Source: Schmidtea nova | Lineage: Eukaryota | Direction: 5' to 3' | Assembly (NCBI GenBank): GCA_044892505.1 | Contig: CM097883.1 | Coordinates: 18,786,001 to 18,850,000 of the forward strand | Length of the DNA stretch: 64,000 nucleotides | In this document: piece by piece, positions 1-29,319 of the stretch | Numbering within the stretch: position 1 is the first letter of the stretch | Layout: each line of letters begins with the position of its first letter | Notes under the pieces: generated by a model | The model's database searches: none | Seen by the model: only the letters and a program-made list of their open reading frames with translations | Told to the model about the DNA's origin: nothing | Position numbers and translations under genes: made by a program

Positions 1-1149
1 AAACATTGAAATAACCATCTTGTTACCCGTCACTATGTAACGTTGGTACTGTAACAAGTGGGTGGGTATTCGCAATCAGTGAGCGTCGTCAATATGAAAC
101 TATGATCGACCGAATATCTCCTGGGTCCAAGGGCTACCGATAGAAGGTTTCTTGCCCATTTTGTCCCTTCTTCGACGATTTATCTTCAAGCATTCAACAA
201 AATTTTATCGGAAATTCAACATAAATATTCTACATAACTTTAAATTTATTATTACATCCAAATAAATTAGTCCGAACATTCGAAACACTAATAAAACGTT
301 AAAATTTACTAATATTGTACTTTATGTTAATTATTAATGAAATGCATTCTAAAATAAAATTTCAATTTACAAAAAAAAATAAAATAAAACTTTAAGATTT
401 TATTTATGAAAAATGATATTTTTTATTACTTTAGGTTTTTCCATTTCTCCATTTATAAATAAAATTTTCTTTTTCTTTTTAAATTTGTTTTATTGTTAAC
501 ATAACTGGCAGATTTAAATGCTGAATTAAATTTTTCTCTCGAAAACCCGTTTATTGGCCAAAACAAGTAAATTTATTAATCTAGATTAACCATTTTAAAT
601 TAATTATTTTCTTAGTATCAGAACATGGAAGCGGGGATCAATGGTTCCAATGGTATCAATCTTAAGACACTATTAGAAAATCCAACTCGCCCATACTTTC
701 CCAACTGAGCGTGAAACTCAGAGAACACCACCCCACTCCTCACGATCTATGAGCCACCTCCATGCGAAAGATCGCGAGACTTTTTTTTGTTGAGGACAAC
801 AAATTTTGACTCACTTACAGATAATTTCGAGAATCGTTATTAACCAATTTTTCTAAGAAAATTTCAAACTTGGATCAAGGTACGGAACCGTAACATTTTA
901 TTTGTTGTTTGATATTATAATTCTTTTATGTACCCATGATTGTCATTTATTATAATTCTATATTTAATTTTATTTTTTATCATTAATTTAATGCATATAG
1001 TTATGCTTCCTAGGCTGCTCACGCGGCAAGGGAGCCCGAGTCGTCGTTGTGGGGCTTCACAGTCTCACGTGGCGGTTCCACCTTTTTATGAACTGATAAA
1101 ATATTTTCAATGATATCATTTTAATCGACAAGTTTGTGTTAAACAATTT

Positions 1150-3821: not shown

Positions 3822-4206
3822 ATGGGAATTTAGAATTTTTTTTTTCGTTCTTGTGATTTTCTCAATTTAGTTTAAAATATAAAGTAATTAAATAATCGTA
3901 AGGGTATCAAATTTGAAAACTTCATGAAAATTTTATTATAATAAAGATCCATTCTCCAGATTTTAGTGTGAATTACAGAGCATACCACTAAAGCGTAAGT
4001 CCTTCTAACGGCAGCAATGAACCCGTAAACATAAATGGGGAGTAGTACTAGCGATAGTGCTCACCTGCCCATCATTGTTTAACCACCATGCGCATCACCA
4101 ACTTGATTATCTAGGGAAATAATCAAGGGCGCTTGAGTGTTTAGTTGCACATTTTATGTATGATCATGGATGAGGGATCCCTAGTCATTGTTAGAACAAT
4201 TTTCAT

Positions 4207-4470
4207 CTAACCCCTCCATGAACCCAACAATTTTAAGAGTGCTCCTGCCTTGTGGTTATCGGATACTGGCCACGACGGATCTCCCTCCCATCTGATTCTA
4301 AAATGATACGGGAATGCCATCGCCCGGATATCAGCATTTACATGGTGTCGCTTCCATGCTCGCAGGTGACGCTCGGCAGAGTCCCTGATCCGTTCGGGGA
4401 TCGAATTAGCATCGCTTAATATCATCTTTAGGGGTTGGCATCGCCGCATACTGGATTTCTTTGTTGACAT
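4207..4470 (-). pseudogene. Truncated LTR ORF-A paralogue
   Basis: AERHLRAWKRHH...FRIRWEGDPSWP matches the RHLRRW...LRWEGDTDW motif; the frame ends where the LTR is truncated. Confidence 0.75.
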
Positions 4471-6592: not shown

Positions 6593-6963
6593 TGTTGGGC
6601 CAGCCAAATCGAGCAGCATCTGAAAATAATGTGCAATCAATAAAATAAATTAAATACAGAATAACAACAAAATAAATTACCAACACCAAAGCGTAACAAA
6701 ATAGGCGGCAACATCTAAAAGAAATAACATATTAATCAAAACAACAAAAATCTTCAAAACTCACTCATGCGAAGCAGATAAAATTGGAATATGACAGCGC
6801 GTGGGCGGATGTCACCGAAGACCTAAAGCAAAATCAAATAAAAATTAAATCATACAAAAAATAAACTTACCGCATGATTAACCAAACAAATCGGCGAGTT
6901 AAGTTAGGCAGCAAAAAGCCGACAACATGAAAAAAACGAAGCAAACATACACACATACTCGAT

Positions 6964-7002
6964 GCTGATTGGCTAACCAACAACACCGGTTCAGTATAAA
7001 TA
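6964..7002 (+). promoter_or_regulatory. LTR promoter: inverted CCAAT box (CTGATTGG) and TATA box (TATAAA 6995-7000)
   Basis: Canonical motifs and spacing; similar CCAAT-then-TATA arrangements occur in the related LTRs at about 5.6 kb and 42.9 kb (minus strand). Confidence 0.7.
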
Positions 7003-7093
7003 CTGAAGTAAAATCAGTATTTGGGAATGTCATTTTTACCGAGTGTAACTTGCAGTTGAGCATTGAGAACATTGTAAATCCAACTTGAAGAGA

Positions 7094-7107
7094 AATAAAA
7101 GGTAATT
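7094..7107 (+). promoter_or_regulatory. Poly(A) signal AATAAA abutting a 5' splice donor (AAG|GTAATT)
   Basis: AATAAA 7094-7099, GT 7102-7103. Related LTRs show AATAAAG|GTATGG and AATAAAG|GTATGT at the equivalent position. Confidence 0.65.
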
Positions 7108-8122
7108 TGGTGTTATGTTATTGATGTGTCTAAACCCTCATAATTGTTTATAACCATATTAAAATCCATAAGGTTTTCCGGAGGCCTAACAGCCTGACGG
7201 ATTCTCTGGCCTCTCAGCGCAACACAACCTTTCGGTTGTGAGGTGCTGATGCGGCGGGACCATAGGTGTACTAAATATTTGGAAAGCGGAAGGGGTTAAA
7301 TGCACATAGGGTATCGAGTAAGACCTAACGATCATGAATGAAATCAAGGTAGAAATGATCTAATATAAACGTTATGCATCACGATGATAGGGTATCGAGT
7401 ATAAACTAGTAGTCGTAAACGAGCGTAAAGTGAAGCCCGTTTGTTTTGGAAGGAGATATATTGTGGCGAAGTCTAGACGAGGGATAGACGTGTAGTGAAT
7501 AATATTAGGGTAAATGAATTAGGCGACGACGAGGGTAGGTATATGTCAACCTTAGCGCGTACGAGTTCGGGCATAGTGAACCTAGTATCAAGGGTTAAGG
7601 ATAATCGATAACCTCTGTCAGCTGTGTTTAGTCGCCAGGAGAGATGATAAATAAATCACAGGCATCGAGAACTGATAAAATGATGAACCCCAGTGAGTAA
7701 GTACCACAGGAACTTACGAGAATTACCCGACATGGGATGATCATTGCTGGTTAGATGAGGAAGTGATTGAGAACGACTGATGAAATTGAATGTAATAAAT
7801 AGTATTATCCATAAATAAAAACGGTGGTAGTTGAGTGATTGAACCTGATTGATGAGTATTAAGTATAATAGCGATATGATTAACAAATGCAACAAATCGT
7901 GCGTAGCTGAATCGTCGAAATAAAAAGCGGAGTACATTAGCTTCAAGCTATCATATAACACGACCCACATTAAGTCACCAACAATGATCCGGCAAAAATA
8001 CAGAATGTACCACTCAGACCTACAAAATTTCATAAATAATACGGGTGGGTCGACTAATATAAATAGGTCCGTTCTACCATAGAATCCGTAGAGTAAAAAC
8101 AACCATCTTCTTTAGAAATACT

Positions 8123-8758
8123 ATGGTGAAACTGGAGAGTTGCCGAGAGAAGCCGATGGTCGCGTACCCTATAAAGATAGAGAATACCATCCTTCGTAGG
8201 AAACGGCGCACCCGCTCCGTCCTCAGACCAAATACGAACCCAAATATCAGAGGAGAGAACGAAGCACCCCGAAAAGTTGTCGAAGTATCACGTCGCCACC
8301 TACGACGATGGATGAGGGCCCATATGAGCTCAGCCGCTAGCACCCCAGCTTGCACGTTTGAACTACAGTTGCGGTGGGAAGGAGATACCGATTGGGTACC
8401 CTCCTCGGATCGTATCAAGCCGGAAAATACCCGATGGTTTTATCAACTCCTAGATGAGTTAAAGCAACCCCGCTGGCTACTGAGTACCGGAATGATGTCC
8501 GGAAAAGAGCTACATCAACTCGGATACATGCTGCTAGACAGGCCTCGGTGTGGCGACACTGGGGAAGTCTTCGCCTACTCAAACGCGCCAGGAAGCGTGT
8601 CATTGGACCAACACCCCGAGCCCAAAGACCTTCGTCTCTGGGAGGTATTCATCTTTCGGGACAAGTTAAGTTGGAGCCCTGTCCCGGAGTTATACCATGA
8701 GAGCGGAATCCGTCGTGACGAGAACACGGCCGACCAGGAATTACGACCCTTCATCTAA
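8123..8758 (+). CDS. LTR-encoded ORF-A, 211 aa, unknown function, Arg-rich N-terminal motif
   Basis: Intact in both LTRs; four diverged homologues in the window conserve all or part of RHLRxW and RWEGDxxW. Confidence 0.8.
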   Translation: MVKLESCREKPMVAYPIKIENTILRRKRRTRSVLRPNTNPNIRGENEAPRKVVEVSRRHLRRWMRAHMSSAASTPACTFELQLRWEGDTDWVPSSDRIKPENTRWFYQLLDELKQPRWLLSTGMMSGKELHQLGYMLLDRPRCGDTGEVFAYSNAPGSVSLDQHPEPKDLRLWEVFIFRDKLSWSPVPELYHESGIRRDENTADQELRPFI

Positions 8759-8949
8759 ATCGCAAGGAAACCGATCCACCGAAGGAATATTTGATGTGTA
8801 TTAAAAATAAATGTATTAATTTTTGGGTTTTGTTATGTCTTTGAATGTATGAAGCGATCTGAGAGTGAAACACCTGTTTGATAATAAAGATAGCGACTGG
8901 GAGAACATACAAACCATACATAACCCGATTAATTATACATTTTACAGAG

Positions 8950-9513
8950 ATGAATGAACATCCAACTAGGAACTACAAACAAGAGGCAAAAGAGCATAAA
9001 GCTCGATCGCGAGTCCTAGAAAACCGCTTGCGGCAGCTAAACGAAGAGCACCAGCGAATTAAAGCCACGTGGTTCAACCCAGAGAGGGTTAAAACCATCC
9101 TGCAAGCCAGATACAGGGCGGAACGAACAATCGACGAGCAAGCTAGGGAGGTAGCAGCACTAAAGACGGAGCTGTCAAATTACTTGAGGGCATCAACTCA
9201 GGAGTTTATCACCGAGCAACTACGCCCAGTGATCAGGGCTAGCACCTTTAATCGGTGGGTGGACACAATATCGATGACAACAAGTACCCAAACGGAAATA
9301 GAAACCATCCCAATCACAACTACCCCAACGTCCCCAATAATTCTGGAAGGCTCGAAACGAACAAAGAGACGGAATCGCTTGGGAGCGAAAAAGCGTAGGG
9401 AGAGACGCGCATATGCGGATCGCCTAGGAATCGAAGTAGACTTGCTCAGTGGTCTATCTGAACAAGAACTACTAAATGTAATTCGACCCGCTGTATTGTT
9501 GAACTACAAATAA
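8950..9513 (+). CDS. LTR-encoded ORF-B (coiled coil, TSTQT motif, basic region); ATG at 8950 preferred over TTG at 8878
   Basis: Homologues at 3225-3821 and 40585-41142 start at the equivalent MN; acceptor-like TTTACAG precedes the ATG. Confidence 0.8.
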   Translation: MNEHPTRNYKQEAKEHKARSRVLENRLRQLNEEHQRIKATWFNPERVKTILQARYRAERTIDEQAREVAALKTELSNYLRASTQEFITEQLRPVIRASTFNRWVDTISMTTSTQTEIETIPITTTPTSPIILEGSKRTKRRNRLGAKKRRERRAYADRLGIEVDLLSGLSEQELLNVIRPAVLLNYK

Positions 9514-9903
9514 ATGTATAAAATGAATGATTTGACTTGTCTTGTTTGTTTGACGCATGTATGAGAATTAAAAGTAACAAAAACCTGGTTCATTTAAAGC
9601 TGCAGATATCTAAAAGGTAAATTACCCTAGGACAAAAGAAAAGAGCATAAGTGGGACCGAAAGAAAGCCACAGACACCTTCTATCGGTAGTGGTGGACCC
9701 GTGAATAAACAAGGGAATAGTAGCCGAAAGGTTGCTCACCTGCCTTGTCATTTCACAACGTTGACACAGTACCAACATGATGAGTAGTTAGGGATACATC
9801 ATGGGTGTCAGCGGGGGAATGTTTTTATGTTGGCGAGATCACCCTAACATATAAAATCATAACGATCTCCGTTGTCAATCTAACCAACACACCAGCATAA
9901 ATT

Positions 9904-9922
9904 TGGGGGCTCAGCCGGGATT
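9904..9922 (+). other. Primer binding site complementary to tRNA-Pro
   Basis: TGGGGGCTCAGCCGGGATT versus the tRNA-Pro/MLV-type PBS TGGGGGCTCGTCCGGGAT (2 mismatches); it starts after a 6-nt spacer following the LTR end. Confidence 0.8.
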
Positions 9923-10443
9923 AAATCGATCTTTGTGGGAAAAAGTGAATTCGATATCTGCGGACAGTTTAGAGCGCATGAACAGGGATGAAGTGAACTT
10001 AGCGAGGAAAAGTAAAGTAAATGATAACATAAGGTTTGAGGGTCCTGAAGCAAGAATGAATCGGGTTGAAAAATAATAAATAAAAGTATGAGTGTAAAAT
10101 AATGAGAATGATGAGCATGATAAAAGTATGCATGAGAACGAAAGTATGAATGTGGAAATATGAGGATGAATGAAGCAGGATGAATAGTATGTGGAGTGAC
10201 AGTATGAAAAGTGATGAAAAGTACACATGACGTAAAAGTATGATGAAAAGAGCGCATGAAAATGGTATGAGTATGAGCAACTAGCAATGATCATGTCGGG
10301 GCGACATTCAAGAACACGGGGAGATACGCAAGTAACGACGTAAAACAGAACAACAGAAAGCGAACAGTAGGGCTACCATAGAATAGGAATGATAAATAAT
10401 AAATAAAAATCGATAACAAAATTAACGAGAATTCATTCAGGGG

Positions 10444-10902
10444 ATGGAGAACAAAATAAAAGAAATGCAAACGTTTTTCGAAACAAACAACGAGACAGTG
10501 GAGACAATAACGAGAAAGTTAAAACGACTCGAGGTAGGAGAATATCACGAACCGACAAACAACACAGAAAGAGCCGAAAGGATGATGAGCTTAAGTGAGA
10601 ATAAGAACACAGTGGATACAGCAACACGATATCAGTGGTATAGAGAAAGATTAAACAACCCTGAGATGAATATCGAGTGTCACAGGCTAGAACAACAGTT
10701 AACAACAAAACACGATGAGTGGATAAGAATAACAACAGAACATACGAGACAATATCTGACGTGTCATATCTGTGAAATGAATAAGATACAGATAATGTTG
10801 TTGCCATGTGGGCATTTCCGATTCTGTAATGAATGTAAAATAAATGAACGATGTCCTATGTGCAACCTTCCCGTATCCGAGAAAATAACAGTGTACTTGT
10901 AA
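10444..10902 (+). CDS. Coiled-coil protein with C-terminal IAP/MDM2-type RING finger (putative E3 ligase)
   Basis: CHICEMNKIQIMLLPCGHFRFCNECKINERCPMCNLPVSEKITVYL-stop has the spacing and terminal position of IAP RINGs; no BIR domain is seen. Confidence 0.85.
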   Translation: MENKIKEMQTFFETNNETVETITRKLKRLEVGEYHEPTNNTERAERMMSLSENKNTVDTATRYQWYRERLNNPEMNIECHRLEQQLTTKHDEWIRITTEHTRQYLTCHICEMNKIQIMLLPCGHFRFCNECKINERCPMCNLPVSEKITVYL

Positions 10903-11599
10903 TAGAAATAAAGTTTTGAACAAGTGCAGTTGTTATTGAAATTATGAGGGTTTAAAGATGATTTGGTAAAAATGACCTAAGTAATTATGAGCTACTCACG
11001 AGTAGTCCGATAAGCACCCATTGGGGGGAACCAACTGATCAACTTACCCGAAATGTGTAGAAAGGGGCCAATCGCGGATATTGGAAAGCTCTTGTGATGT
11101 GATTGATCACCACATCGTGCATCAGTGGACCAATGCGATCTTTTTATATATTTTGGTTGGGGTGAAAGGTAGGGACAACTCAGCGAGGTTTAGGCGCGCG
11201 CAGAAAAAACTATAAAAAGAGGATGTTGAAACTGATCAGTAAAGAGAGAGAAAGCAACGAAATGAGTAAGATGAATAGCGAAACGTGGTATATGATGAAA
11301 GGCACGTAATCAGCTCGCATAAGGTAAAATCAAGTAGAAAGGTTGACGAATCGATAACAGAATAAAGGGGTGTAGTAGATGAGCCGAGTAAAGGGAAAAC
11401 TCGAGGATTAAATGAATTCCTTGAAAGAAAGGAAATGATAAAAGGGGTCCTAAAGAGAAAGGATTTGCCCATAGTTCTTGAAAGATAGAACTTAACGAAA
11501 CGCGACAATAGATTCTCCGAAGAAGCATAAGTGACCACTGGGAGGAACATCCCGAAGCAACACATGCAACCACTGAGAGATGATATTTCGAGTTTTCGT

Positions 11600-12180
11600 T
11601 CGTGAGCATAGGTCTCATAGTGAGCATAGGTCTCGTCATAAAACGTAACATCCTAGTGAGCGTAGGTCTCGTCATAAAACACAACACCAAAGTGAGCATA
11701 GTTCTCGTCCGAAAATATAAATCTCGTAGTGAGCAGAGTTCTCATTAATAAACACAAGACCAGCGAACATAGTCCTCATCAGTGAGCGTAGTTCTCATTA
11801 ATAAACATAGTCATTGTAGTGAGCTTAGTTCTCATCAGGAAACATAATTCCTGTAGTCACCATCAGTGAGCATAGTTCTCATCGGGGAACATAGTCCCCG
11901 GAGCAAAGAGTTTCCATCAGTAAGCAAAACCCTCATAACAACCATGTTTTGCCAGTGAGCATAGTTCTCGTCAGTGAGCATAGTTCTCGTCAGTGAGCAT
12001 AGTTCTCGTCAGTGAGCATAGTTCTCGTCAGTGAGCATAGTTCTCGTCAGCGAGCATAGTTCTCGTCAGTGAGCATAGTTCTCGTCAGTGAGCATAGTTC
12101 TCGTCAGCGAGCATAGTTCTCGTCAGTGAGCATAGTTCTCGTCAGTGAGCATAGTTCTCAACGGTGAGCATAGTTCTCGT
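11600..12180 (+). repeat. 19-bp tandem array CAGTGAGCATAGTTCTCGT (~12 contiguous copies, 11953-12180) with degenerate spaced copies upstream
   Basis: Unit starts at 11953, 11972, 11991, 12010 and so on to 12162; the GTGAGCATAG core recurs from about 11602. Confidence 0.95.
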
Positions 12181-12504
12181 TCGAAATAAAATATCGAGTA
12201 AAAGCCCACGAGAAAGACGACGAAGTGAGGCAGATGAGGACTAAATAAAACATAAAACTATCCGGATAGTGAAGATCAATAAGCGATAATAGAGATGAAT
12301 AATTGATAATGAGGATAAATGATGAGTAGTGAAAATGAATAGCGAATAATAAGGAATAAGGGTTGAAAGAAACCGAATTAATAACGAGAGAGTTGAAGGT
12401 GCGCACCTGGGTATTGATAAATGCGAGTAAAGCTGATTATGTGGCCTAATGATGTTAAAGTATGCATACAAGGAGGAGTAGCAAAGTAAAGTGAGTAAGT
12501 GGAG

Positions 12505-12973
12505 GGTGCTGACTGGAAAACCCAGCAGACCATGAGATTCGAGGGGAATAAAAGGAAACCGGTTTGTTAAGACAGGTAAAGTGGTAAAGACGCTAGCTGG
12601 AAAACCCAGCAGGTCAACGATAACGATCAAGAAAGATCGAGAGAATAAAAGTGAGTAATAATAAAGTGGTAAAATTGAGGACGCTGACTGGAAGACCCAG
12701 CAGGTCAAAAGTTATGATCATCGGAGTAACGAGCAGTTAAAAGTCGACAGTGAAGAGATAAAGGGTGGATAATAAGAGCGCTGACTGGAAAAACCCAGCA
12801 GGCTAATGAAACGACAATTGAGGTCGAGAATAATGAAGCAGAAGTAAAAGGTGAGATTAAAAGCGCTGACTGGAAAACCCAGCAGGCTAATGAGATAATG
12901 AGTGAAGTTGAAAGAACCAGAGTTCGAGATAAAAGGTGAGATTAAAAGCGCTGACTAGAAAACCCAGCAGGCC
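12505..12973 (+). repeat. Six dispersed copies of GCTGACTGGAAAACCCAGCAGG at ~85-90-nt spacing
   Basis: Copies near 12508, 12593, 12683, 12780, 12865 and 12949; each can fold as CUG-A-CUGG/AAAAC/CCAG-CAG. Confidence 0.85.
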
Positions 12974-13846
12974 AACGAGAGATGTCAGTTGAAGTAAAGG
13001 TGAGTAGAGATGAGAATTGAAATGAAGTAGTAAACGTAGTGCGAATAGGAGATAAAGCGAATAGTTGGGAAATAGAGTAGTAGACAGATAAGGGGGATTT
13101 GAACTCAGAGCCAGAGAAGCTTGAGAAAAGTAAAGGGGATAATAAGAGCGCTGAGCGACAAAGTAATTGGGGAACTGGGGAAAAGTAATTGGTGTATTTG
13201 AAAAAGAATAGATAATTGATGCGACTGCATAGATAATTTAAATAGACTTAAAATCAAGGGAAATGGGAAAAATGGGGATCTTCATGAATTATGACTACAC
13301 CCGTGAGAGGGACGAGAAACACGATAACGGGGACGTATCGTGTAAGTGATTATTTGTTTTAAGGAAACAAATCAATCAAGCAATTCAAAGCAATCTAGCA
13401 GTCAGAGCAATCAAAAGAAACAAATCAAAGAAGAAGCAAAGCAAAAGCGGAGTAGAAAAGCAGTTGAGAATATAAGCAGTTGAGGAATAGACAAAATTGA
13501 GGGACGAGAAACAAGATCAGGTATAATACCAATCTTAACGGAAGCAGAAAGAAAAGCAGCGAAAAGGACAAGAACAGGTAACAAGCCTAAGCAACAAAAG
13601 AACAAACAAGTAGAGATCAGCGATAATTCGAGTAATAAAGAGAATCAAGAAGAAACCCCAGAAGATCTAGAAGTACAAAACGAAGTAGAGACGATAGACA
13701 GTGAACTAGTCAGAGAAAACAGAACAAGAAGCGAATCAAGAGATAACGAAACAGAGAGTAGCGAAGAAGAAGAGTCGAATTCAGAAACAAGTGGTGAACT
13801 AGAATTAAAGAAAACTAGTACAGTATTCCAAGATAGTGGAATCGGG

Positions 13847-16513
13847 ATGAGTGATCACAGAGAGGATCTAAGAGAAAAATTCAAGGGCGAACCATTTAAT
13901 GGAGACGCCAGTAGATTGGACACGTTCCTGAAAGAATTTGGCATATTCGTGGATATATGCTGATGGAGTGCAGAAACGTTAGCGAATCGAATCCCGCTAT
14001 ACTTGAAAGATAGCGCATTGGATCTGTATATTGAGAAGAGATCGGGAAGTAATCCACCCAGAACGTGGGAAGCAATCAAGGAGTTCTTCCAACAGACGTT
14101 TGGGATAAATAAAGTGTTGAACGAAGCGTTCGATGAGTTCTCAGCAAGAAAACAGAGGAGAAACGAGTCAAATGCAGTGTACGCAAGTGAATTAAGAAAG
14201 TTGGCGAAACTGGCATTCAACAGAGGAAGCCCAGTAGACGAAGAATTGATGACAGCGTTATTCGTACGAGGTCTCAGGAGACCTGACATCAGAGCACAAG
14301 TGGGATGCAAAGGATGTAAAACAGTAGATGAAGCGTTGGAAGCAGCCAACCTATTCGAATTGCATATGGCAATGAATGACATGAGAATTACGGCGGTAAT
14401 GGGAAAAACGACAGAAGATGAAGAACAAGGAAAAAGAAACATGAATCAAAGTATTCCCCATTCACAGAGATTGTTCAAAGAACCGCCAGCGAGGAAGAAT
14501 AACGGATATATCACAGTAAACACGAATGGAGGAAATAGTTACAATGACAGGCAGAATAGGCAATGTCAGACGTGTGGGAAAAACGGACATTGGCAACAAG
14601 ATTGTTTTCAGAATGTAGCCTGCAAACTGTGTGGACAAAAAGGTCACTCAGAGAATCGATGTTATGGGAAAACGTGTTACACATGTGGGAAAACGGGACA
14701 CATGTCAAGAGAGTGTAATCAACAGAGAAGTTGGTCAAACAGTGGAAATAGACAGAACTATGGAAATCGACCAAGCTATGGGAATCAGGGTCAACAACGG
14801 AATAACCCAAACAGCAGTGCAAATGAAGCCAGTATGAAAGAAGCTAAGTTGAGACAGGAGGTATCCAGATTACACGAGATAATCGAAAGCATGGCAAAAG
14901 GAAGCCAGCAAGCTGCTCAACCAAAGATAAACATGATCCAGTTAATAGAAGCTGAGGCCGAAAGAGAGAATAGAGAAAGCCAACAGAAACATAATCAAGA
15001 ATGGGCTAGAGTACGACGAGAAGAAGAACAAGTCAGGCAACAACGATTACAACAGTTAAAAAAGGGAAATCCAAGGATCAACATGATGCGAGCAATGATG
15101 GAAGAGAAGCAGCAGGATGAGTCAGACGAGTCAGAAGTTAAAGAGAAAAGAAACGAAGGACAGAAACAAGAAGAAGTGAATCAGGAAGTAGAAGTCGCGG
15201 AGCAGAAGCAAAAGGATGAAGAAGTAGAAAAAGAAACAGAAACGGAAAAAGAAGTAGAAAAAGAAACGAATCAAGAAGAGGAAGTAAGAATCAAACAAAG
15301 AGGAATGTTGGTGATCATGCCGAATGATCACGTGTGGCGATTCAAATACGATGTAAAAGAAGAAGTGGGAAGACTGTTCAACAAAGTAAATGAGATGATT
15401 CCGGGAGTGACGAAACTGCCCAGAGAAGCATTCCTACAAACAGAGGATTTACCGGAAGTAAAGTTGAAGATGACTGATATATGGGAAGATATGGGAGTAA
15501 CAGAAACGAAAATAAACGTGATGATCATCAGAGAGGTGGAACCGGAAAAAATCCCACCACCAGTGAAACATCAAACTCGGATTAGTCGAATATTCAAGGG
15601 AAAAATAAGACGAAGACGGTTGGAAGAAATAGACGAGTTGGAGAAAAGAATGGGAAAAGCCGAAATAATGGGAAACGAGAAGGAACTAACCCAGGAAGTC
15701 AGCAAAAACGAAACGAGACCAACCGCGCATATTGGGATGCTGAGACACCCAAGACAAGAATTGTCAGATGAGGAAGACGACAGCGAAGTTAGCAGTCTGG
15801 CAGGAGACATGCTAAAGGAACCAGAAAACGAGGACAAAAAGATGGAAGTAGTCGAGACAATAGAAACATTGTCAGTAAAGGAAGACGAAATTCAGAAGCT
15901 GATGGATAACGCGTTGGAAGTAATCCATAACGAGGAGTTTATCGACACGAAACGATATCGAAAGTTTATACGAGCAGTATGGCAGATGAAGTATAAAAAG
16001 TGGTTACAAGAAAGAGAAGTGAGAGTAATACAAGAGTTCATAGAGAGGTTATTGAAAGAACCACTCAACGAATACATAATACAGATATGGATAAACGAGT
16101 GTTCACCGAGAATCTGGATAAGGAACCCAATGACGGATGGAATTTACCGATGGGTTGAAGACAGATTGGGAAGCTCGTACAAAGACAAATTCATATATTC
16201 GGAAAACGGATTGGTGAGAAAAGGAACGCATATGATAGACACAGGCATATGGCCAGGAGAAATAACAACGCTATCTATATGCAACACCAAAAAGGAAGAG
16301 AACTTACAAGGAATCGTCAAAGAAGCGAATACGTGTTACGAGATGAGAATAAAACCTCAGTTGATAGAGGCAAAAGAAAGAATCTTGGCGGAGAATTTGA
16401 ATACGATGATAGAACAGATCATCCAACAAATCAAGAAACATCGAAAGGAATTGACGAAAAGCGAGTATGAGAATTTGAAACAGTGTATCGAGAACATACG
16501 AGATACAAGTTAA
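13847..16513 (+). CDS. gag: Gag (capsid, three CCHC knuckles, long C-terminal extension with two ubiquitin-like folds); interrupted by in-frame TGA at 13961-13963
   Basis: FGIFVDIC*WSAETLANRIPLYLKDSALDLY is gag N-terminal-like; knuckles are CQTCGKNGHWQQDC, CKLCGQKGHSENRC and CYTCGKTGHMSREC. The frame is otherwise open back to 13346 except for a TGA at 13481. Confidence 0.9.
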
Positions 16514-16555
16514 ACGAGACATTCAAATTTCAAGACGGACAAGCTAATTGCCAAG

Positions 16556-19500
16556 ATGGGAAAAGAAATGTTTAAACGAGGAGAGGTATCAGATCTGAAG
16601 ATTACCGTGAGATTACCAAACGAAGAGACAAAACAAATTGAGGTAATACCAGATAGTAAAGTGGGAGAAATAGTAGATGTCATCAATGAGACGATATTGC
16701 AACGAGAACGGGAAGATGAATTCGAAGATGACATCGCGATAAAATACAAGGAACATCTACTGAACGAACGTGACGAAAGACGAGCGTACAAAATCGGCAT
16801 ATGGGATAATTATCAGACAATACACGTCATCAGAATGGATGATGTGCAAAGAGCAACACCAAGAGATGAGGAAAGGAAAAAGAAACGACGAGAGGACGTT
16901 ATGCGTAAGCTGAGGCAGATAGTAGAAATTTATCGGAACTGGCAGATGAAGCCAGAATGGGAGACAATATTGGGAGAATTGGATCTTAACAGACGACGGT
17001 TGACGCCAGTAGAGAGGCAATGGGATAACAAAGAAAAATGTTGGAAAGTGAAAAGAGGCGTGTATGAAGAAGATCCAGAAGGAGAAGACAGATACGAAAC
17101 GAATACGAAACGGATATGTATGGTAACAAGGAGAATATTACCAACGGACTTAGACGGACCAGAAACTGCAGTAATATGGGCAGAATTGGAGAAATTGAAA
17201 ACGAGTGAATTGATCGAGCTATTGAGAGGAAATACTCGGGGAAAAAGACAAACAATAAAAGGCTTAGCACAATTCATAATCTCAAATGGAGAAGACATAA
17301 CGAACTTGAGAAAAGTAGCTAAAGCGATAGCAGAATACAAGAGAGTTAACGAGTGGTGTCCAGAGCAACTAGACGATGTAATAAAAAAGTGGAGAAACAA
17401 AGAGTTTGCGGAGGAAACGCCACAGAAAATACATTTGAGGATAATGTATCCGAATCAGAGAAAAGAAGAGTTTTGGGTGATGCTAACAGAAAAAGTGAAA
17501 AGTGTTAAAGAGAAACTGATGTACGAACTACCATTCCACCTGCAACATCAAGGACGATCGTTGGATAATAATTTAGAAATCTGGCTGACACCAGTACAAT
17601 TGGACCTAATGAACACGCTAACAGTGGCACAAATAGTGGGTCAACCACTGAAGTTTAAAGAGGAAAAGAAAGCGAAGGGAAGCATGAGTACACCAAGTCC
17701 GATGAAGTCAACAATGACCCCAGGAACAAGTTCGGGACAAGTAAGAACAACACCAATAAAAACGAGAGAGAGAACACCGCCAGAAGCGTATGACGTCGAT
17801 GAGATACTAACAGATAGTGACGAGGCGATAGAAGAACTAACAAAGTTGACTCAAAAACCAACGGCGAATATTTTCGACAGAATAATACAGATGCCAATAA
17901 CGTCACCAGCAGAAATCGACGATCAAGGAGTGGAACAGGAGGTAGTCATAGAAATGGTAAACGATTCGGAAGACGAACAAGGACAACCACAGTTTACTCA
18001 AGAAATGGAAAGATGGTTGGAACAACGAGCAAACGAAGGAAGGGATGTTACAGAAGAAACAGGAAGAGCAACGAGATTTGTAGAAACCGGAACTGGAATG
18101 GAAAAACGACCAAGAGGAAGACCAAAGATAGATCCAGCAACAACAATCCCAAAATCAAGGGAAGAAAGGAGACAAGAGCAATGGGAGACTTGCTTGAAGA
18201 AACTGGATAAAATCGCAGAGATCAGAGGAAAAGAGGAGAATCAAGTTTGTCAAGGAGAAGAATGGCTCACCAAAACGATAATGGATGTGTTAGCGGTAAT
18301 TGACCCAGAATTAAAGAATTTGTGGCGGATAAACGAACCCAGTACAAAGGCAAGGATGCTACACAATGCGATAGCACCAATTATGCCAGAATTGATAAAA
18401 GCGAAAACAAAATCAAATCATCTGGATTGGCAAGGAACCACGATGTTAATAAAAAAGCTACTGAACGGAACAGAAACGGACAGCAAATATCTAGTAGCAA
18501 TCTCGTATACGATATACAATTTGTTAACGCTAAGCCGAGGAAGCCCGAAGTCAAGTCCGATGGGAAGACATATCAAGAATACGGCGATGATTATCGAGAA
18601 AGAAATTGAACCATATATCCTCAGAAAAGGAGGATGGGAAAAGTTCATAAAAGAAAATCAGACAAAAGAAGGTTCTAACGTGATGAGAAAGAAACTCGAA
18701 GGAGTATTGAGAGAAATGGAGAATAGACAAACGATGCAAGGAAACGGAAGATCGACGTTGAATTTAAACTCGATAATCATGATGATGTTAGTATGGTTGT
18801 TAAGCACAGAGGGTGTAACAATATTTGAAGTATTTGATTGTGATCAAATGAAGTTAGGAGAAAAGTACTCATTGAGAGGTACGGAGCAATGCAAAGATGC
18901 AACTCCAGTAGAGTTGAAAGAGAATAAAAAAGAACAATGGTACCACGTATATCAAGAGGCAGAACTAATAAAGACAATGGTGAATGAATGCAAGGTACAG
19001 AAGACGAGATTCGCATTCTATTGTGGGAGAGGACATTATTCAGCAATTGTCATGCCAGGAACAGAAAGAGAACCAATCGTATTGCAAGGGGAAGACTGCG
19101 AAGCATTATTTAAACATGGAGAAGTGACAACGAGAGATAAAATCAAGATAAAAGGAAAGCCAGGAATGATGTTGCAGCAGACGTATTATGTAGCAGGACG
19201 GATTACGGGAGGAGAAGGATATTGTCAAGGAGAAACCTACCCAATATTCGGGGTACCTGCAACCAACTTAGTAGTGATGGATACGTACATAGTCGAACTG
19301 AAAAGCTACGAAGCATTCTTCGAACCAACAACAGGAGAAATGAAAACGTTATCCATGTGTAAAATTGACAGAAGCATGTGTCAAACGGGAATGTCAACAT
19401 TGGTGTATAAACCAAAAGTGAACGAATGTCAATTACAACTGCTACAAGGAACAAAGTTCGACGAAATTCAAGGAAAAACGTTCCAGGAAGAGGACGAGGA

Positions 19501-22500
19501 CGACAAAGCTAGAGCAAAACATCTCAAAGAAGCTTTAGAGAATAAAAGACAACTGAAACCGGATCATAGAGAGAAACGGATAGAAATGAGAACCACACCA
19601 ACAGTGTTGATAACCACAAACCAGGATGTGGGAATGAGATTCATAAAAGGGAAAGCAACCCTTAAGTGCAGTACAACAGTATACGAAACGAACTATCCAG
19701 GAATATACGTGTCAAAGCAAGAAGTGCCGAATGCGAAACCCAAGATCGACACAATGGATATCAAGCTACACTTGTATGTGAATAATAAAATGGATTTCTT
19801 ATTCCATAGAGGACAAGCCTCATTGCAAAAAGTGTACTACGATCTGATAAACAACGATTGTATACTGAATCGGGAAATATTGAAGACAAAGTTGGCCGTA
19901 GCGATTACGAATCCAGATAGCGCGATGCCGTTATTACCACTGAGAGAAGGACATTTCGGAAGAGTGGTTGGAGAAGCAATGTATGTATACATTTGCGAAA
20001 AGACACACGCATCGCTAGCAGCAACAACGCAGTTGAAACCTGGACAATGTACAAACGAACTAGAAATCGATTACAAAGGAAAAGTACGATACGTTCAACC
20101 GGTGACGAGAATCATCAATCCACCAGGATTTGAACCAAATCCATTCAACTGTAGTAATGCGTACGGACCGCTTTATCAGAAGCCAGATGGCAAATGGGTT
20201 ATGTTCCCAGGAAGAACTGAAGTATTAGCACCAAGAGAATTTGAGCTAATGCAGTTGTCGAAAGATAGACAGTTCAGCGACGTAGATGTCTCAAACAACG
20301 GAATCTATAGTCCAAAGGATCTAGAAGCAGCAAGGCAGAATATACTATTTCCGGCAAGAAGAGAAGCATTACTGTCAAATATCGTAACGATAACGGGAGG
20401 AACGAATTATCGAGAAGGACCAAATTACGAACTGCTGTTGTCACCGGCACATTTCAAGAAAGCCACAGAAAACATGATGAAGGCAATGTGGGGAAGATTC
20501 CTGATATTCGGACAAATGATGGCTGGAATACTGGGTGTTATATTGATAATACAAATCGTCAGAGTGATAATAACGCAAATGTTAGCGTGCTTCGATATCT
20601 ACAAGAGAGAAAAGAAAGTGAATTGGAAAATGGTAGTAGGGTTTTTACCATTCCTTGCGAAAACAATGGTGTTACATGGACACTCAAAAGACATACATCG
20701 AATAAAGAGGTTGTTGAAGATACTTGCAAAAATGAAAGGAACTAACGAAGATGTCGGAAGAAAATTCAAAAAGATAATGCAAGATGAACAAGCAAGACGA
20801 CAACTGAAGAAGGAAAGGAAAGGATTATGGGAAAGAGTGAGAGGATATCGAACACAAGATGATTCAAGTAATGATGACGATGATGATGACGATCGAGGAG
20901 GACAAGCGAATATAAACCAGATTCCACAATACACCGAAAAGAGTGCAGTTGAGAATTGGAGATACAGCGCTCCACCTCAGTCAATGTATAACGAACCGAT
21001 ATACAAAGCGAAGCCGAATATGATGCAGATGATGCCGATGACAAGTATATACCCGATAATTCCAGAAGGATGCAAAGTAAAACGGGGTAGTAGCGTAAAC
21101 TCGTTGGAAGACACGCACACGATAGCAGTTATGTCCACAAATATGGGACCCATCTTAACAACAACCGTAGAAATAAACGGAAGAGAAATCGAAGCTATGA
21201 TCGATACAGGTGCGAACATTTCGGCAATCGACATCAACTATATACCAGAGAAAAACCAAGGAGAAATCGAGAAGACGAATGTACATGTAATCGCGTGCAG
21301 TCAAGAGACAGTAGAGGTAGCCGGAAGATGGTTCGTAAAAATTAGGCATCGAGGTGCAGAAATCAACACGTACATCGCTGTAATACCATCGCTGAGTGTA
21401 CCATGTATTATTGGAACTGACCTGATGCCAGACCTGTTCAAAGAAATCGTGATTGATCTAGGAGCAATGAAGCTAAAAGATAGGACAGGAAAAATCTGCA
21501 GGATGAAAGTTAAAGTGGCAAGTGCGGAACAAATAGTAGTGCCAGCGAGACATGAAATGATGTGTTACGTCAAGATCGATTCGACAATAAAAGGAGATAT
21601 GGTATTCGAACCAAGTAAGAAGTTCGAAGCAAAGAAAGAATTACCAATGGCAAGAGAATTGGTCACGATAAACCAAGAAGGAGAAATACCGATCAATCTG
21701 GTGAACTTCGACGAAGAGGACAAGATAATATACGAGAATGAGAAATTGGGTAAATTGACACCCATGTCCGAAATCGAAATACCAGACAAGAACGAGAAAA
21801 GCAAAGACGAATTACCATGGAAAATCGACAGTGTGTTGTTAGACGAACGACAAAAAGAACAGTTACAGAAACTGTTGATGGAATATAAAGATATATTCGC
21901 AGCATCAGATCTGGATTTAGGAACATGTGACGTAACCTTACACACGATACCATTGACGGACGAGACGCCAATCGCATTACGACCATACAAATTGGCAGAA
22001 GCTCAAAAAACAGTGGCAGAAGAAGAGGTACAAAAGATGTTAGATGCAGAGGTCATCGAACCTAGTTGCTCACCCTGGCAATTCCCAGTGGTGATGGTGA
22101 AAAAGAAGGATGGAACTCAGAGATTCTGTATCGATTACAGACGATTGAATGCAGTTACAAAAAGAGATACGTACCCACTGCCAGACATAAATGAAATGTT
22201 ATTGACGTTACAAGGAGCAGCTTATTTCACGTCACTAGATTTAAAAAGTGGATATTGGCAGATCAAAATGAAAGACGAGGATAAAGAGAAGACAGCATTT
22301 ACAATCGGACGAGATCTGTACCAATTCAAGAAAATGCCGTTTGGGTTAACAAACGCGCCAGCATCATTCCAGAGATGCATGAATTTCGTAACACATGGCA
22401 TAAAACAATGCATGGTGTACATCGACGATCTATTGATCTACTCCGCAACATTTGAAGATCACTTACAAGATATCAGAAATGTGTTCGTGAAATTAAGACA

Positions 22501-25500
22501 GTGGAAACTGAAATTGAAGCCGTCAAAGTGCGATTGGGCAAAAGAAAAAGTGACATTCTTAGGTCACATTGTGTCAGCAAAAGGAAAAGAACCAGATCCA
22601 AGGAATATCGAAAAAGTCAAAGAATGTCCACCACCAAAGACAGTGACTCAAATACAAGAATTTTTGGGATTATGTGGATATTATCGAAAGTTCATCAAGG
22701 ACTATGCCGGAATATCAAAGCCAATGCAAGAATTGGTAAGACAAGATGTGTCGTTTGTATGGGGAGAAGAGCAGCAAACAGCATTTGAGACATTACGAGA
22801 CAAACTGATTACAGCACCAATATTAGTCCATCCAGATTTTAAGAAGCCATTTTTGTTAGCAACAGATGCAAGTGGATACGCAGCAGGAGCAGTACTAGGC
22901 CAATTCGATGAAGAAGGCAAGGAAAGAGTAATTGGATATTACAGTCGAACCTTCAGGAAACATGAAAGGAATTACTCAGTCACGGAAAGAGAAGCCTATG
23001 CGATAATATTGGCAATCAAGCATTTCAAGTACCTACTGTGGGGTCATGAAATATATATCACGACGGATCATCAACCATTGGTATGGTTAGGCCAACATAA
23101 AGAATCATCAAGTAGATTGATGCGTTGGGCGATGCAGTTGCAGGAATACTCACCGTTCATAAAGTTTAAAGCAGGAAAAGCAAATGCAAACGCGGATTGC
23201 ATGTCAAGGTTTACATTTCCAGAATTGGTGAACCTGAATGCTCAAAAAATATGTGCATTAATAGCGGAAGATTTGGATTTCAGCGAATTAAGGAAAGATC
23301 AACTCGAAGATGAGGAGTTGGGATTGATCAGCAAGTATCTGAAAGAAAGGGAAATGGAGATATTCGGCAAGAACCAAACGTTACGCGAACATATGCAGAA
23401 ATATCAGCACCGATATGTGATGGAAAAAGGATGGTTATTGATACAAGATGGAGAACGAAGATTAATGTGCTTACCTGCGAATAGGCGAAAGGAAATCATG
23501 ACTCAATATCATGACGGAAAATTAGGCGGACATATGTCAGCGAAAAAGACAATCGGGAGATTGAGACAAAAGTATTTTTGGCCAACCATGGAAGATGATG
23601 TGAAAGAATGGATAAAGAACTGCTTAACCTGTGCGACAAGAAAGAACGTCGGAACGAAGTGGAAAACACCACTAAAACCTATGCCAATACCTGCAGAACC
23701 AATGGCAACAATAGCAATGGATGTAGTTGGGCCATTGCCGGAAAGTTTAAAGGGGAATCAATATATCTTAGTAGTCACGGACTACCTAACGAAGTTCCCA
23801 GAAGCGTTCGCAATACCAGATCAAAAGGCGAAAACAGTCGCAAGAATATTGGTGGAAGAGATATGCTGCAGATATGGAACACCAAAGAAAATCCTAACGG
23901 ATCAAGGAACGAATTTCATGAGTGAAATATTGGACGAAGTTACGAATTACTTCCGAATTGCGAAATTACGGACATCCCCATACCATCCGCAAACGAACGG
24001 TCAAACAGAAAGGTTCAATGGAACATTAATACGCATGTTGTCGAATTACGTCAGCAAACATCAGACTGACTGGGATGAATATATCAACTTGTGTTTAATG
24101 GCATATAGAATGTCAATACATGCGGCAACAAAGCTAAGTCCATTTCAACTGATGTACGGAAGAGATTGCAACTTACCGATCGATTTAGAATACCAACCAC
24201 CATTATCACAATACATGGAGGTTGACGATTACGTTACAAAGTTCAAAGAAAGAATGCAAGAAATCTGGAAAACGGCGGAACTAAACATCAAGTTCTATCA
24301 AGAGAGTTATAAGGATCTACATGATCAGAAAAAGAATGTGAAAGCACATGATTTAAAAGTTGGAGATTGGGTGATAATCGAGACACCAGAGATAATACCC
24401 GTTACGGTCAAGAAACTCCAACGACCAGGCAAAGGGCCATACGAAATAACAACAGTAAATGAAAACAATGTGCGAGTACGATTGGTGAACAATCCATTGG
24501 TAAGACCAATATACGTGAATGCATGTCGATGCAGGAAAATACCAAAGACAGCAACTCTATCACCAGAGAAACGAGTGATGACAAGATCACAGACGGCGAG
24601 AATCAATATGTTACGAATACAACAAAAGTCGCAAACAAGTCTAGAAGACAACCAAAGGGAGATAATAGACATCAAAGAACTGGCAAAGAAAACCAGAGAA
24701 ATTATACCAGAATGGAAAAGGTGGCACGATTTCAATATACTGTCAGAAGTTCGAAAGAATGTAATGGATTATGCGAAGGATAGGACAGCACATCCAATAA
24801 CAAGAACGCTGCTCGAGGAAATCCCTCAAACATTGAATCTACAAGACAAAGACGGTAATACCGCGTTGCACAATGCAATCGAGCACAGTGGAAACGAAAA
24901 AGTGAAGGAAATTGTAGAGATGATACTCGAAGGTGGAGGAGAAATTGACAAAGTGAACTGGGAAGGAATTACTCCACTCATGATGATGACGATTCACGGA
25001 AGAAACGATGAAATAATCAAGCTATTCGGAAACACCAGATCGAATTGGTTGACAAAAGATAAAGAGGGACGAACATTCTTGAATCATGCAATTGATAGAG
25101 CGAATCACCGAATACTGAAGTATATCACGGAAAACGCCACGTGGGAAATCGATGAACTAACCAGAGGATCGATCATGAAACAAGCAATCGGGGTAAAGAA
25201 CAGTAAAACCTGGAGAATATTGCTAAAATGGAAACGACCAGAAGGAGATTCGTGGGTCGTAAATTGTAATGAAGTATTCACAAGGGGAGAAAATGCGTTA
25301 CTGAAACATCTATTGGAAGTAACATACGATCCAAAAACACTTGCAGTGTTGATAGCGAGAGATACGCTACGGGTTAGTGAAAACCCAAGAGAATACAAGT
25401 TGGAAGACAGGAAGAAAGAACTATTCGGATTAATCAAGAAATGGTGTGATAAGCAATGGAATCCGGATATGAGCTTCGAACATTTCTATGACATCCAAAA

Positions 25501-28500
25501 GCAGCACAAAGAAATAAGCAAGAGATATAAAGAGCTGATGGAAGCATTGAAATATGGACAATTCTTCAGACAAGCAGTGTATCAAGACCAACGGATGAAA
25601 CAGATGCAAACACGAATAAGAAGCAAAGCAGTGTTGTTCAGTGCAAAAGCCGATTATCAAGAGAGATTAGACGCAATCGTAGCAAAAGCACAGGAAAAAT
25701 TATCGGAATTCAAAGAGAATAAAAACTCGTTGGAAATACTAGGAGCAATTACAGAGAAAGTGCACAGATATGCACAAGGGGATTATAACGAGAGTGACAT
25801 AGAAACGATCAAGAATCAAATGCCAGTAGCATTCCTATTATCGAGGGATGGGAGATTGCCAATACACTGGGCATTACGTCGAAAGAAGGAAAACGAAGTG
25901 CTGGAAATAACGAAAGCGATGGTCAAGTGCGAAGCAGATATGAATACGGTTGATGATGATGGAGATACAATCATGATAATCGCAGCAAGAAAGAAGACGA
26001 ACTTTAAAGTGCTAAGTGAATTATACGAAGCAGGAGCAAGAATCGAAGGGAAAAATGGAAAGAATAATTCCATCATAGATATCGCAATACAATGGAACAA
26101 CTTTGAAATGATCAAGTTCATAAAGTCCATCAAGAGACAAGAGGACATAGAATACCTGGCGAATAACGTAAAGAATTTCAGTCTGACAGTAATGATACAC
26201 GACATAGAGAAAACGAGAGCATTACTAACATGGGTGAATCCGATCACCAAGGAACCGGCATTCAAGATCAATGACAATATGGAACAAAATCAGAATTGGT
26301 GTATCAGAAGCGCATTATTAAGACACAAAAAGCCAGAGATAGTAGAAGAATTCCTAAAGAGAAGAGATTTGAAATTCACGAACAATCCAAAGGAACAGGA
26401 ACGAATGGGAAGATGGAAAGAATTGTTCAGAAAATATGTAAATGAGTGGGCAAATGCCAAAGAAACAATCAAGCAAAGTAGACTAAAAGACATGGAACCA
26501 TTCAAAGAGATGGAAATACGTGAATTCGAGTCTAGCACACTCGCGGTTCAGGCGTATGAAAGATTGATTGAAGAAATTAATGTCGAGGACGACATTTTCA
26601 AAGGATCAGGGGGTGGTTACAGAGATTTCGACGACAAAAGCAACAACGAAGAGAACAACGAAGACAATGACAACAAAAGAACGGAGGATAATGAAAAAGA
26701 AAGACAAGAAGAACCGAAGCCAACGAGAAACGACAAGAAAAGAGAAGCAGAAGAACGAGAAAACAATGGAACAAAAGACGAACGTACAAACTATGGAAAA
26801 CGAACAGGAAGTCTACTTTTGAGACCGGAAATGTTGTGTATTGCGATATTGATAACAATCATCGGACAAGGAGAAGCCAAGAAACAATACGTCACGCTAG
26901 AGATAATCAGAGGAAATGAAATATATGAAAGAATATGCTGGAAAGAAAACCTGAAGAAAAACGATACGCTGAAGTGTATATTGTCAGATCTGAAGCGAGA
27001 CGTCATCCAAATCAAAGGATTGGAGAAAGAAAAGTCATACATAATATGCGCAATAAAGCAGAGAGGAGAACCAAAAGCACCTCAAGTAACTGCATGCCAA
27101 TTATACAAAGCAACGGAAGCGCTGAAGATACAGAAATGGATTGAGAAAAGAAGCGAAGAGACAACGAGAAGAACAGAAGTGGAATCAGAGAAAGGGAAGA
27201 ATCAATCTGAAGCAGAAGAAGGAATCAGAAACCGAACAGAGAAAGAAAGAATAACCAAAAATCCAGCGGGCAAATTAACATTCCAACCAGAATTGATATG
27301 TGTAGCATTAATATTAATCCTCATTAAGAGAATCATGGAGGACATAGATATCAGCGTGATGACGTTAGTAAACATCCAAGATCAACGAACAACGAATGGA
27401 AGATGTTGGGGACGAAACAATGAGGTAATTGGAATCAGCGAAACAAGAGAAATAGTAGAGGCGGAGACAAATGAGGAAATAGAGATAACTGAAATAGAGA
27501 CAGATAGAAAATATGAACTATGTCTCATGGAAAAGGCAGCAAACGGAAACAGACCAGGAACAAGCGAGTGTAAAGTGTTCCAAGCAAAGGAGATAATTGA
27601 ATTCCCAAAAAGAAAGAAACAAGATCAAGAAACGATTGCGAATGAAGTAGTAACCGTGGAGATAAAAAACATTGGTCGGAGAACAATTGGGATGTGTTGG
27701 AGAAAATACATCGGAGTATCGACCAGTCACGTACTACCGCAATGCAGAACGAGAGAACGAGGAATCCCGTTTCAACTAAATGGATTCGAAGTCGGACAAG
27801 CTTACGAAATTTGCGTAATCCGAAGAATAAGAGAAGTAATACAAAGAAGCCTGGAGTGCAGACTGTACAAGACGCCAGAGCAAATTAACGGTACAAGAAC
27901 GATCGAAATGGGAGGAAGTCGACAAAGGAAAAGAAAGTCAAGAAGAACCACGACAACCAACAGTCAAGGAACTCAACAGACAACAGAAGGGACGTCAACA
28001 AAAAACGAACCGGAATCAACGACCCTGATAATATGGAAGATCCATAAAAAGGTCCTAGAAATCTGTTGGACATTAATGCCAAACAGTATGAGAGAGTCTC
28101 CACGAAACTGTCAAAAGACATCAAATGACAAAAGGGAAACAATCGAGGTAGAAATGAGGAGGTTGAAAACAAACGCAGAATACGAAGTGTGTGCAATCGA
28201 AGAAGTAGACGCACAAGGAAATCAACAAGAAAGGTGCGAAACCTATTACACGCCAAGGAACATAACGATAAAAGGGGGAACCCGCAAGTTAGAATTCCGA
28301 GAATTGAGTCAGAAAAGAGAACAAACAGAGACGGAGGAAATACTACAAAATCAACAAGAAAGATGGGAACCCGAGAAAGTGATCGAAGAAGTCAGACAGA
28401 GACAACAACAATACAAACAATGGGAAGCGGAATGGAAAGGTCAATATGGCGTGATGATAAACCAAAGTGAAACTCCGAAGATGAGCATTGGGAAAACAAT

Positions 28501-28753: not shown

Positions 28754-28877
28754 AGGGTGGAATATGAGTGTAAATAATAGTGTAAAAACCAATGCATAAC
28801 CGTATACGTATGGGTATAAATATTATAAAACATAAAAACAGAAAAAAAGAGAATGATGTATATAATCTAGAAAAACA

Positions 28878-29228: not shown

Positions 29229-29319
29229 TGAATAAGCGGAAAATTGTGTAAATACGTGTAAATAAAGAACCAGAAAAAAATCAAAAATATGGGGAAATTG
29301 ATGTAAATATTGTTGTAGA

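Follow-up and report, generated by a model that had tools for sequence, protein, structure and literature searches.

The window analysed here, 64,000 nucleotides of Schmidtea nova DNA (assembly GCA_044892505.1, contig CM097883.1, positions 18,786,001 to 18,850,000 of the forward strand), contains a giant Ty3/gypsy element and further copies of a conserved module located at the 3′ end of its long terminal repeats (LTRs):

6593..36069, plus strand: Burro-like giant Ty3/gypsy element of 29.5 kb with a 4-bp target duplication
6593-9897 and 32765-36069, plus strand: the LTRs of this element, 3.3 kb, 99.9% alike
9674..9897, plus strand: conserved module in full, at the 3′ end of the LTR, delimited by a sharp conservation edge; putative R-U5 leader
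9904..9921, plus strand: 18-nt primer-binding site (PBS) for tRNA-Pro, by match to the host tRNA-Pro
35846-36069, plus strand: twin of the module in the 3′ LTR (motif from 35849), by covariance model and LTR alignment
4001..4229, plus strand: module of a second family at an LTR end without PBS, by covariance model
43451..43651, plus strand: module of a third family, running into N at 43652 and with a mismatch in the lower D1 stem
40192..40413, minus strand: 9677-family module next to a U3 that has diverged, by covariance model and alignment
1..147, minus strand: copy cut by the window edge, with P0, box, D1 and D2; its family is the commonest among the matches listed

Pfam analysis of the element identified a zf-CCHC domain, a fusion glycoprotein that precedes PR-RT-RH-IN in the same frame, as well as ankyrin, TRAF/MATH and RING domains. 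With ~30 kb, an env-like gene between gag and pol, and ankyrin plus MATH/TRAF domains, it is Burro-like and matches the domain layout of planarian Burro elements (PMC6431247, in excerpt). Burro/GYPSM1 and the GAG-ENV-POL errantiviruses share its size, the position of the env-like gene, the ankyrin, MATH/TRAF and RING cargo and the thousands of copies (excerpts of PMC6431247 and PMC13524379). Among the best 120 matches listed for its reverse transcriptase there was no named Burro, the top identity being 57% to an unnamed sequence. The gag region and env-pol (13484-28753) share one frame, interrupted by two stop codons (ends at 13963 and 16513). The LTR holds two open frames (8063-8758 and 8869-9513) lacking a Pfam match and ending 160 nt before the module, and the 5′ internal region contains degenerate tandem repeats at 11590-12200 (~19-nt spacing) and 12577-12980.

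The motif that pointed to this module, a candidate RNA structure at 9677..9744, was present at all six sites given by the original prediction, and a covariance model search of the window yielded exactly six matches with 38.8-88.9 bits. The sites lie ~220 nt upstream of LTR 3′ ends. Genome-wide, the 14-nt 5′ word of the motif has 14,697 exact matches versus 4 for a control word, 14,059 of them with UAGU at the expected spacing downstream. Of the four families proposed, the copies at 9677 and 40346 belong to a single module family (module 95-97% alike, upstream sequence 53-80%). The supposed partial copy at 75-147 on the minus strand has a complete first domain, belongs to the family seen most often in the listed matches, and is cut by the window edge.

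For the comparative analysis, ~190 genomic stretches were retrieved with four sequence patterns, all sampled copies lying in the initial part of contig C1. The 136 distinct copies formed 52 clusters, from which we picked by eye 24 intact, distinct families with a mean identity of 0.63; the 28 excluded clusters comprised truncated or deleted copies, near-duplicates and old singletons, an exclusion that favours cleaner pairing. Twenty copies added later constituted a held-out set. Pairing was assessed by comparing each sequence's own partner with the partners of other families in up to 20,000 permutations, and both-sided (compensatory) changes were counted per cell. Because the 24 rows group into about 5-6 clades and share ancestry, the permutation counts given below are not probabilities. 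This relatedness inflates the counts of both-sided changes, yet compensatory changes also occur within clades.

Within the three largest families, the module displayed identities of 0.88-0.95 compared with 0.52-0.72 upstream, the shuffled baseline being 0.53, and between the 9677 copy and the 40-kb copy the identity was 0.97 inside and 0.68 upstream. Just upstream of the module, A at position -3 (90% of 82 types) and W at -1 (84%) form an Inr-like pattern; TATA-like enrichment was weak, with 9 matches at -35..-20. The sharp identity drop together with the Inr-like A at -3 suggests that the module begins at the U3/R edge. Its conservation within families may partly be due to strand-transfer recombination. 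In eight PBS-bearing loci, the 1.4 kb to each side of the 5′ word contained no conserved pairing partner for it, and the sequence following the PBS varies between families.

The module consists of four covarying domains in fixed order (P0, D1, D2 and D3), ~220 nt in total, with a short box between the first two and the tRNA-Pro PBS following the last:

9676..9688, plus strand: P0 mini-hairpin, 2-3 bp closing the 7-nt T-loop-like loop UUCUAWC, from covariation in 51 clusters
9695..9701, plus strand: possibly PAS-like GRACCCG box that can pair with the T arm of tRNA-Pro from the host, by a scan along the tRNA
9701..9756, plus strand: D1 long hairpin, containing the 9677..9744 feature, from covariation, RNAalifold and single-sequence folds
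9717..9740, plus strand: C-loop-like internal loop of D1, short strand 9717-9719 and long strand UCACC 9736-9740
9759..9813, plus strand: D2, with a stem, an 8x1 internal loop, a second stem and a loop with UAGGG (9787-9793), from RNAalifold and permutation
9823..9897, plus strand: UUUAUG word, D3 terminal hairpin, CCCUAR box (9842-9848) and LTR end CA, from permutation

On this comparative evidence, the 9677..9744 feature is the upper half of D1 within a conserved, covarying module at the LTR end. We are highly confident that D1 folds as a long hairpin rather than as a three-way junction, and equally so for the predicted fold of the module overall. The hairpin comprises a lower stem, a G.G mismatch, an internal loop, and an upper stem capped by a GNRA or 5-nt loop. 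In the lower stem, the purine run preceding GARUAG pairs with the bases following CUG, with an energy of -12.25 kcal/mol for own partners versus -6.66 kcal/mol for foreign ones (0/20,000 permutations), a difference reproduced in the held-out 20 copies (-12.14 versus -6.37; 0/10,000). Across the 24 families, 7 of 8 pairs of the long hairpin show both-sided change, in 35 cells. RNAalifold selects this hairpin unaided, single-sequence folds of longer pieces yield it as well, albeit weakly for the 43451 copy, and a U.G pair kept in 24/24 families favours the plus strand.

The original prediction of a three-way junction thus holds in one of its stems. Its 6-bp capped hairpin covaries clearly, with 3.62 of 4 pairs formed with the own partner versus 2.11 with a foreign one (0/20,000 permutations). 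All four hairpins quoted with a GNRA cap exist, but only 15/24 families carry a GNRA loop, and the junction UCAC, described as invariant, is near-invariant, GCUCAC being found in 20/24. By contrast, the closing stem GGYAG/CUGCC has all five pairs in only 11/24 families, one both-sided change in 120 cells and no preference for its own partner (4.17 versus 4.20 pairs, 14,186/20,000 permutations as good). In the held-out set it is complete in 3/20 copies (3.15 versus 3.16 pairs), and with ~20 extra 3′ bases its pairing probability falls to 0.00-0.02 for each of the window's five distinct copies. The inner CCC/GGG stem fares no better, with GGG absent in 10/24 families and 1 both-sided cell of 72. 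The three-way fold was mistaken; the motif piece behind it ended at CUGCC, cutting off the true 3′ arm that starts there. As for the likeness to a type I hammerhead, the CUGANGA core is indeed absent (0/24), whereas the three-way topology is unsupported, two of its three stems lacking covariation. The larger alignment revealed covariation in stems other than the closing and CCC/GGG stems, and the proposal of a functional cis-acting RNA is supported by four separate stems covarying across 24 families at a mean identity of 63%. The one clue specific to a function points to binding of the primer tRNA, a role absent from the original prediction, which named a ribozyme, export or packaging.

The P0 hairpin occupies G10-G11, the very bases that the closing stem had paired with CUGCC. 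Pair -1/12 is formed in 35/51 clusters versus 20.5 after shuffling and pair 1/11 in 42/51 versus 31.7 (0/3000 each), and pair 2/10 is C-G in 49/51 clusters. Counted by hand among the matches listed, A11 accompanied U1 in 7/9 and C1 in 1/91 cases, and in a second listing A11 was found in 53 of the 100 U1 matches listed. A tRNA T loop has 7 nt, U and A at positions 1 and 5, a purine at position 4 and a closing G-C pair. The P0 loop likewise has 7 nt on a short covarying stem, with U and A at loop positions 1 and 5 in 48/51 clusters; position 4 is U in 100% of 82 types and the closing pair is C-G. We therefore describe P0 as T-loop-like by size and U..A spacing, with U in place of the purine and the closing pair flipped (for T-loops in general, see excerpts of PMC3664808).

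Likewise, D2 shows both-sided change in 9 of 11 RNAalifold pairs, both stems reaching 0/10,000 permutations, and its 8x1 internal loop presents A-K-U-W-C-C-A-A opposite G. Downstream thereof, UUUAUG is exact in 22/24 families, the D3 stem was matched by 4/10,000 permutations, and the CCCUAR box is found within 1 mismatch in 24/24 families. CCCUAR can pair with UAGGG of the D2 loop (52/10,000), this D2-loop partner being present in 17/24 families.

The internal loop of D1 has the form U-[CAC]-Y opposite R-[U]-A, with CAC in 23/24 families, and as a 3x1 asymmetric loop within a hairpin, its long strand beginning with C, it matches the sequence definition of a C-loop, with both flanking pairs standard in 16/24 families. 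C-loops share with D1 a longer strand of 3 nt with C at its start, facing a single base, and likewise the flanking pairs and the hairpin setting; they form two triples through tWH and cWS pairs, permitting C.A or C.G in the trans WC/Hoogsteen position, and the letters of the D1 loop are compatible with this arrangement (excerpts of PMC9516175). The D1 loop differs from this motif in that one flanking pair is A.C, as in the 9677 copy, or another mismatch in 8/24 families.

Searching Rfam 15, we obtained 0 matches in the window at the gathering threshold; a local search of the module gave at best 15.9-17.5 bits with E values of 1.2-5, on the opposite strand and all below threshold. The RNA family is real and absent from Rfam, and its kind is a known one, that of the retroelement leader with extended primer contacts. 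A literature search that included few subscription papers retrieved no reported RNA structure for Burro LTRs, although the supplement of Grohme 2018 may annotate them. No LTR RNA structure is described in the accessible portions of PMC6431247 and PMC13524379, nor any LTR structure in those of PMC8532177, PMC11410931 and PMC1635307.

To address primer contacts, we scanned five conserved module words along the host tRNA-Pro(UGG), the sequence of which was taken from genome locus L306; GRACCCG was singled out after inspection. This tRNA, the same as the primer, has 1,111 genome-wide matches and forms a tandem array with a 308-bp period on contig C1 (459.61-459.66 Mb, L306-L311). A PBS follows the module in 20/160 copies, at 224-268 nt from the motif, and all 20 are of the tRNA-Pro type, tRNA-Pro having been the only primer searched directly; within that search, a change of the box together with the primer had no case to draw on, there being no family with another primer among the PBS found. 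The LTR end is separated from the PBS by 6 nt in most families (9898-9903 here) and by ~10 nt in the most frequent family, a gap of 0-3 nt being usual.

For GRACCCG, the T arm was the best site on tRNA-Pro, with -11.6 versus -7.5 ± 1.4 for shuffled tRNAs, 0/60 of which were as good. The box forms 7/7 pairs with the T arm in 18/24 families and 6/7 in the remaining 6/24, the most frequent family included, so that at least 6 pairs are found in 24/24; its commonest change, A to G (4/24 families), still pairs with U55. Binding of the PBS over 18 nt frees precisely this strand of the T stem. CCCUAR paired with the D arm, again with 0/60 shuffles as good, and the three other words remained at chance level (21-37/60). 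In the most frequent family (L003), module positions 14-24 can form 11 pairs with the D arm of tRNA-Pro (-18.2 kcal/mol), a match that adjoins the T-arm box, and the downstream D-arm box is weakened there.

The tRNA-Pro PBS, the T-arm and D-arm boxes and the precedents of the HIV-1 PAS and Ty1 lead us to our preferred reading, held at an even balance, namely that the module may be the R-U5 leader of the genomic RNA, aiding the binding and activation of the tRNA-Pro primer. Transcription would start ~3 nt upstream of CCUUCUA, near 9674, and folding of D1-D3 would bring the GRACCCG box near the PBS. Annealing to the PBS would open the T stem of the tRNA, so that its freed 5′ strand and loop (C50-C56) could pair with GRACCCG in the manner of the HIV-1 PAS. 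The CCCUAR box may then exchange its D2-loop partner for the D arm. In D1, the GNRA cap and the C-loop-like UCAC would fix how the hairpin twists and docks, or else serve as binding sites for a protein (Gag/RT).

In HIV-1, the PAS lies upstream of the PBS and base-pairs with the T arm of the primer (PMC1865047, in excerpt). In common with the HIV-1 R-U5 leader, which has a 7-8-nt box of this kind upstream of an 18-nt PBS, possibly masked by local pairing within a structured leader (excerpts of PMC1865047 and PMC11251516), GRACCCG is complementary to the 5′ side of the T arm and, in 20/20 cases, is followed downstream by an 18-nt PBS of matching type (tRNA-Pro). It differs in its gypsy-type host, the use of tRNA-Pro, the other hairpins and the position of the box ~205 nt from the PBS near the putative 5′ end, and the likeness is one of sequence. 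Ty1 templates likewise carry extended boxes (0, 1 and 2.1) that base-pair with the primer in its T and D regions, with a 10-nt PBS, tRNA-iMet and boxes extending downstream of the PBS, box 2.1 being unconfirmed in particles (PMC3592414, in excerpt); here, both boxes lie upstream of the PBS and inside the LTR. Structured 5′ leaders with extended primer contacts are thus already known from retroviruses and yeast Ty elements. Here, no fewer than 24 families of giant gypsy elements with an envelope gene retain the four-domain fold, while the adjoining U3 decays to near-random identity. The module provides a ready, well-covarying RNA family, marks where U3 probably gives way to R in over 14,000 LTRs, and offers a test of whether the PAS mechanism extends to Ty3/gypsy elements.

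Against the leader reading, intramolecular alternatives exist for both boxes; within GRACCCG, GRA could pair with the UUC in P0 and ACCC with the GGGY in D2, and in the predicted fold of the 9677 copy a local hairpin takes up part of the GRACCCG box. GUUC is common to most tRNAs. The box lies ~205 nt upstream of the PBS, and a predicted PAS of HTLV-1 lies 10 nt from it (PMC11251516, in excerpt). Moreover, the D-arm box becomes CCAUAG in 2 of the 7 families without the D2-loop partner, a change that fits intramolecular pairing equally well. The invariant UCAC-CUG, the 8-nt strand of D2 and UUUAUG are left unexplained by the leader reading and point to protein binding.

Recognition of the module by a protein, in packaging, dimerisation, nuclear export or transactivation (as with Psi, CTE/RxRE or TAR), with an incidental tRNA match, would account for these partnerless loops, as the C-loop-like UCAC, the D2 8x1 loop and UUUAUG resemble recognition sites; D2-D3 kissing loops are also possible (52/10,000). 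Such a role, compatible with that of a leader, is a serious if rather unlikely explanation on its own: it fails to predict a 7-nt match to just that T-arm segment which PBS binding frees. As to packaging, Psi in retroviruses is mostly located 3′ of the PBS, and here the sequence 3′ of the PBS differs between families. C-loops are known to bind protein and to act in viroid nuclear import (PMC9516175, in excerpt), in favour of a protein partner.

The T-loop-like P0 and the UAGGG loop might also mimic the T and D loops of tRNA-Pro, rendering the module a tRNA-sensing switch, a doubtful proposal. The mimics would keep both boxes shut until the genuine primer arrives and is secured at the PBS, the T arm and the D arm, resembling a T-box-like device in an animal retroelement; if true, this would be a riboswitch-like primer sensor.

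We consider it improbable that the module controls 3′-end formation through a poly(A) signal that D1 would conceal in the 5′ LTR but that would be active in the 3′ LTR, UCAC serving as the cleavage site and UUUAUG as the downstream element. The 9677 copy does carry AAUAAA at 9704, 28 nt before the CA of UCAC, and a U/GU-rich word is kept in 22/24 families, but AAUAAA occurs within the first 100 nt in only 5/24 families, and a search for A-tailed junctions after the 5′ word or after D1, a weak test, returned 0 matches.

An undescribed self-cleaving ribozyme, cutting C^A in GCUCAC to define an element RNA end, is very improbable. The multi-domain fold with invariant loops and the ribozymes found in other retroelements would speak for it, as does the twister-sister-like ribozyme of LINE-1/OR4K15, in which a GCUCA strand faces an AG-ending strand between two stems; GCUCAC matches 5/6 letters of this strand and its opposite strand likewise ends in AG (PMC11620745, in excerpt). 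Across the families, the long strand GCUC^AA is matched at 5/6 letters in 21/24. The D1 loop is 3x1 and not 6x5 nt, however, the short-strand G-C is absent with G-C-N-A-G in 0/24 families, and the sixth position holds C or U and in no family A, where A-to-C leaves 0.03 activity in the LINE-1 ribozyme (PMC11620745, in excerpt). Furthermore, the hammerhead core is missing in 24/24 families, Rfam gave no match, and a cut would presumably detach the RNA 5′ end from the PBS.

Finally, the three-way junction as an alternative conformer, adopted before the 3′ arm is transcribed or as a switch, is likewise very improbable: its closing stem can form in 83% of cells and it is the minimum-energy fold of truncated 68-nt pieces, but this stem lacks covariation, is lost in diverged families, competes for G10-G11 with the covarying P0 and has a probability of ≤0.02 in longer context.

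Several further readings were rejected. A splice acceptor (branch-like CUAAC plus YAG) would have a spacing below 10 nt and loses YAG in diverged families, a minus-strand Pol III B box is broken by the G variant of GRACCCG, and a coding role conflicts with stops inside the module in two of the three plus frames and in D2 in the third. HDV-like, twister, pistol and hatchet ribozymes gave no Rfam match. Pattern matches in viral (15 loci) and metagenome collections (120 loci, 80 listed), which are mostly prokaryotic and viral, were chance hits, with at most 21.8 bits in the 92 searched versus 38.8-88.9 for genuine copies. Contigs of four runs of one study (8900-10400) displayed a depth of 108,000-228,000 at 9665-9817 versus mostly 500-8,000 upstream, while candidate copy numbers for the two regions were only 1,811 versus 382, and one loose contig end carries a transposase adapter; we set this depth aside as a sign of expression, contig depth being no expression measure. 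Among the sequencing runs listed as carrying the sequence there was no RNA run, a result without bearing on expression.

Elsewhere in the window, Pfam matches indicated an intronless SPFH/Band 7 frame (52856-54061), a TCP-1 fragment (1150-1998, minus strand), hAT-type fragments (50338-51838) and an RNase H fragment (59511-60443, minus strand). A 21-bp tandem array at 54780-56700, 92-95% alike, is open on both strands for 583 codons, and near-perfect palindromes with 60-64-nt arms at 57457-57609 and 57858-58013 are related to 62362-62750.
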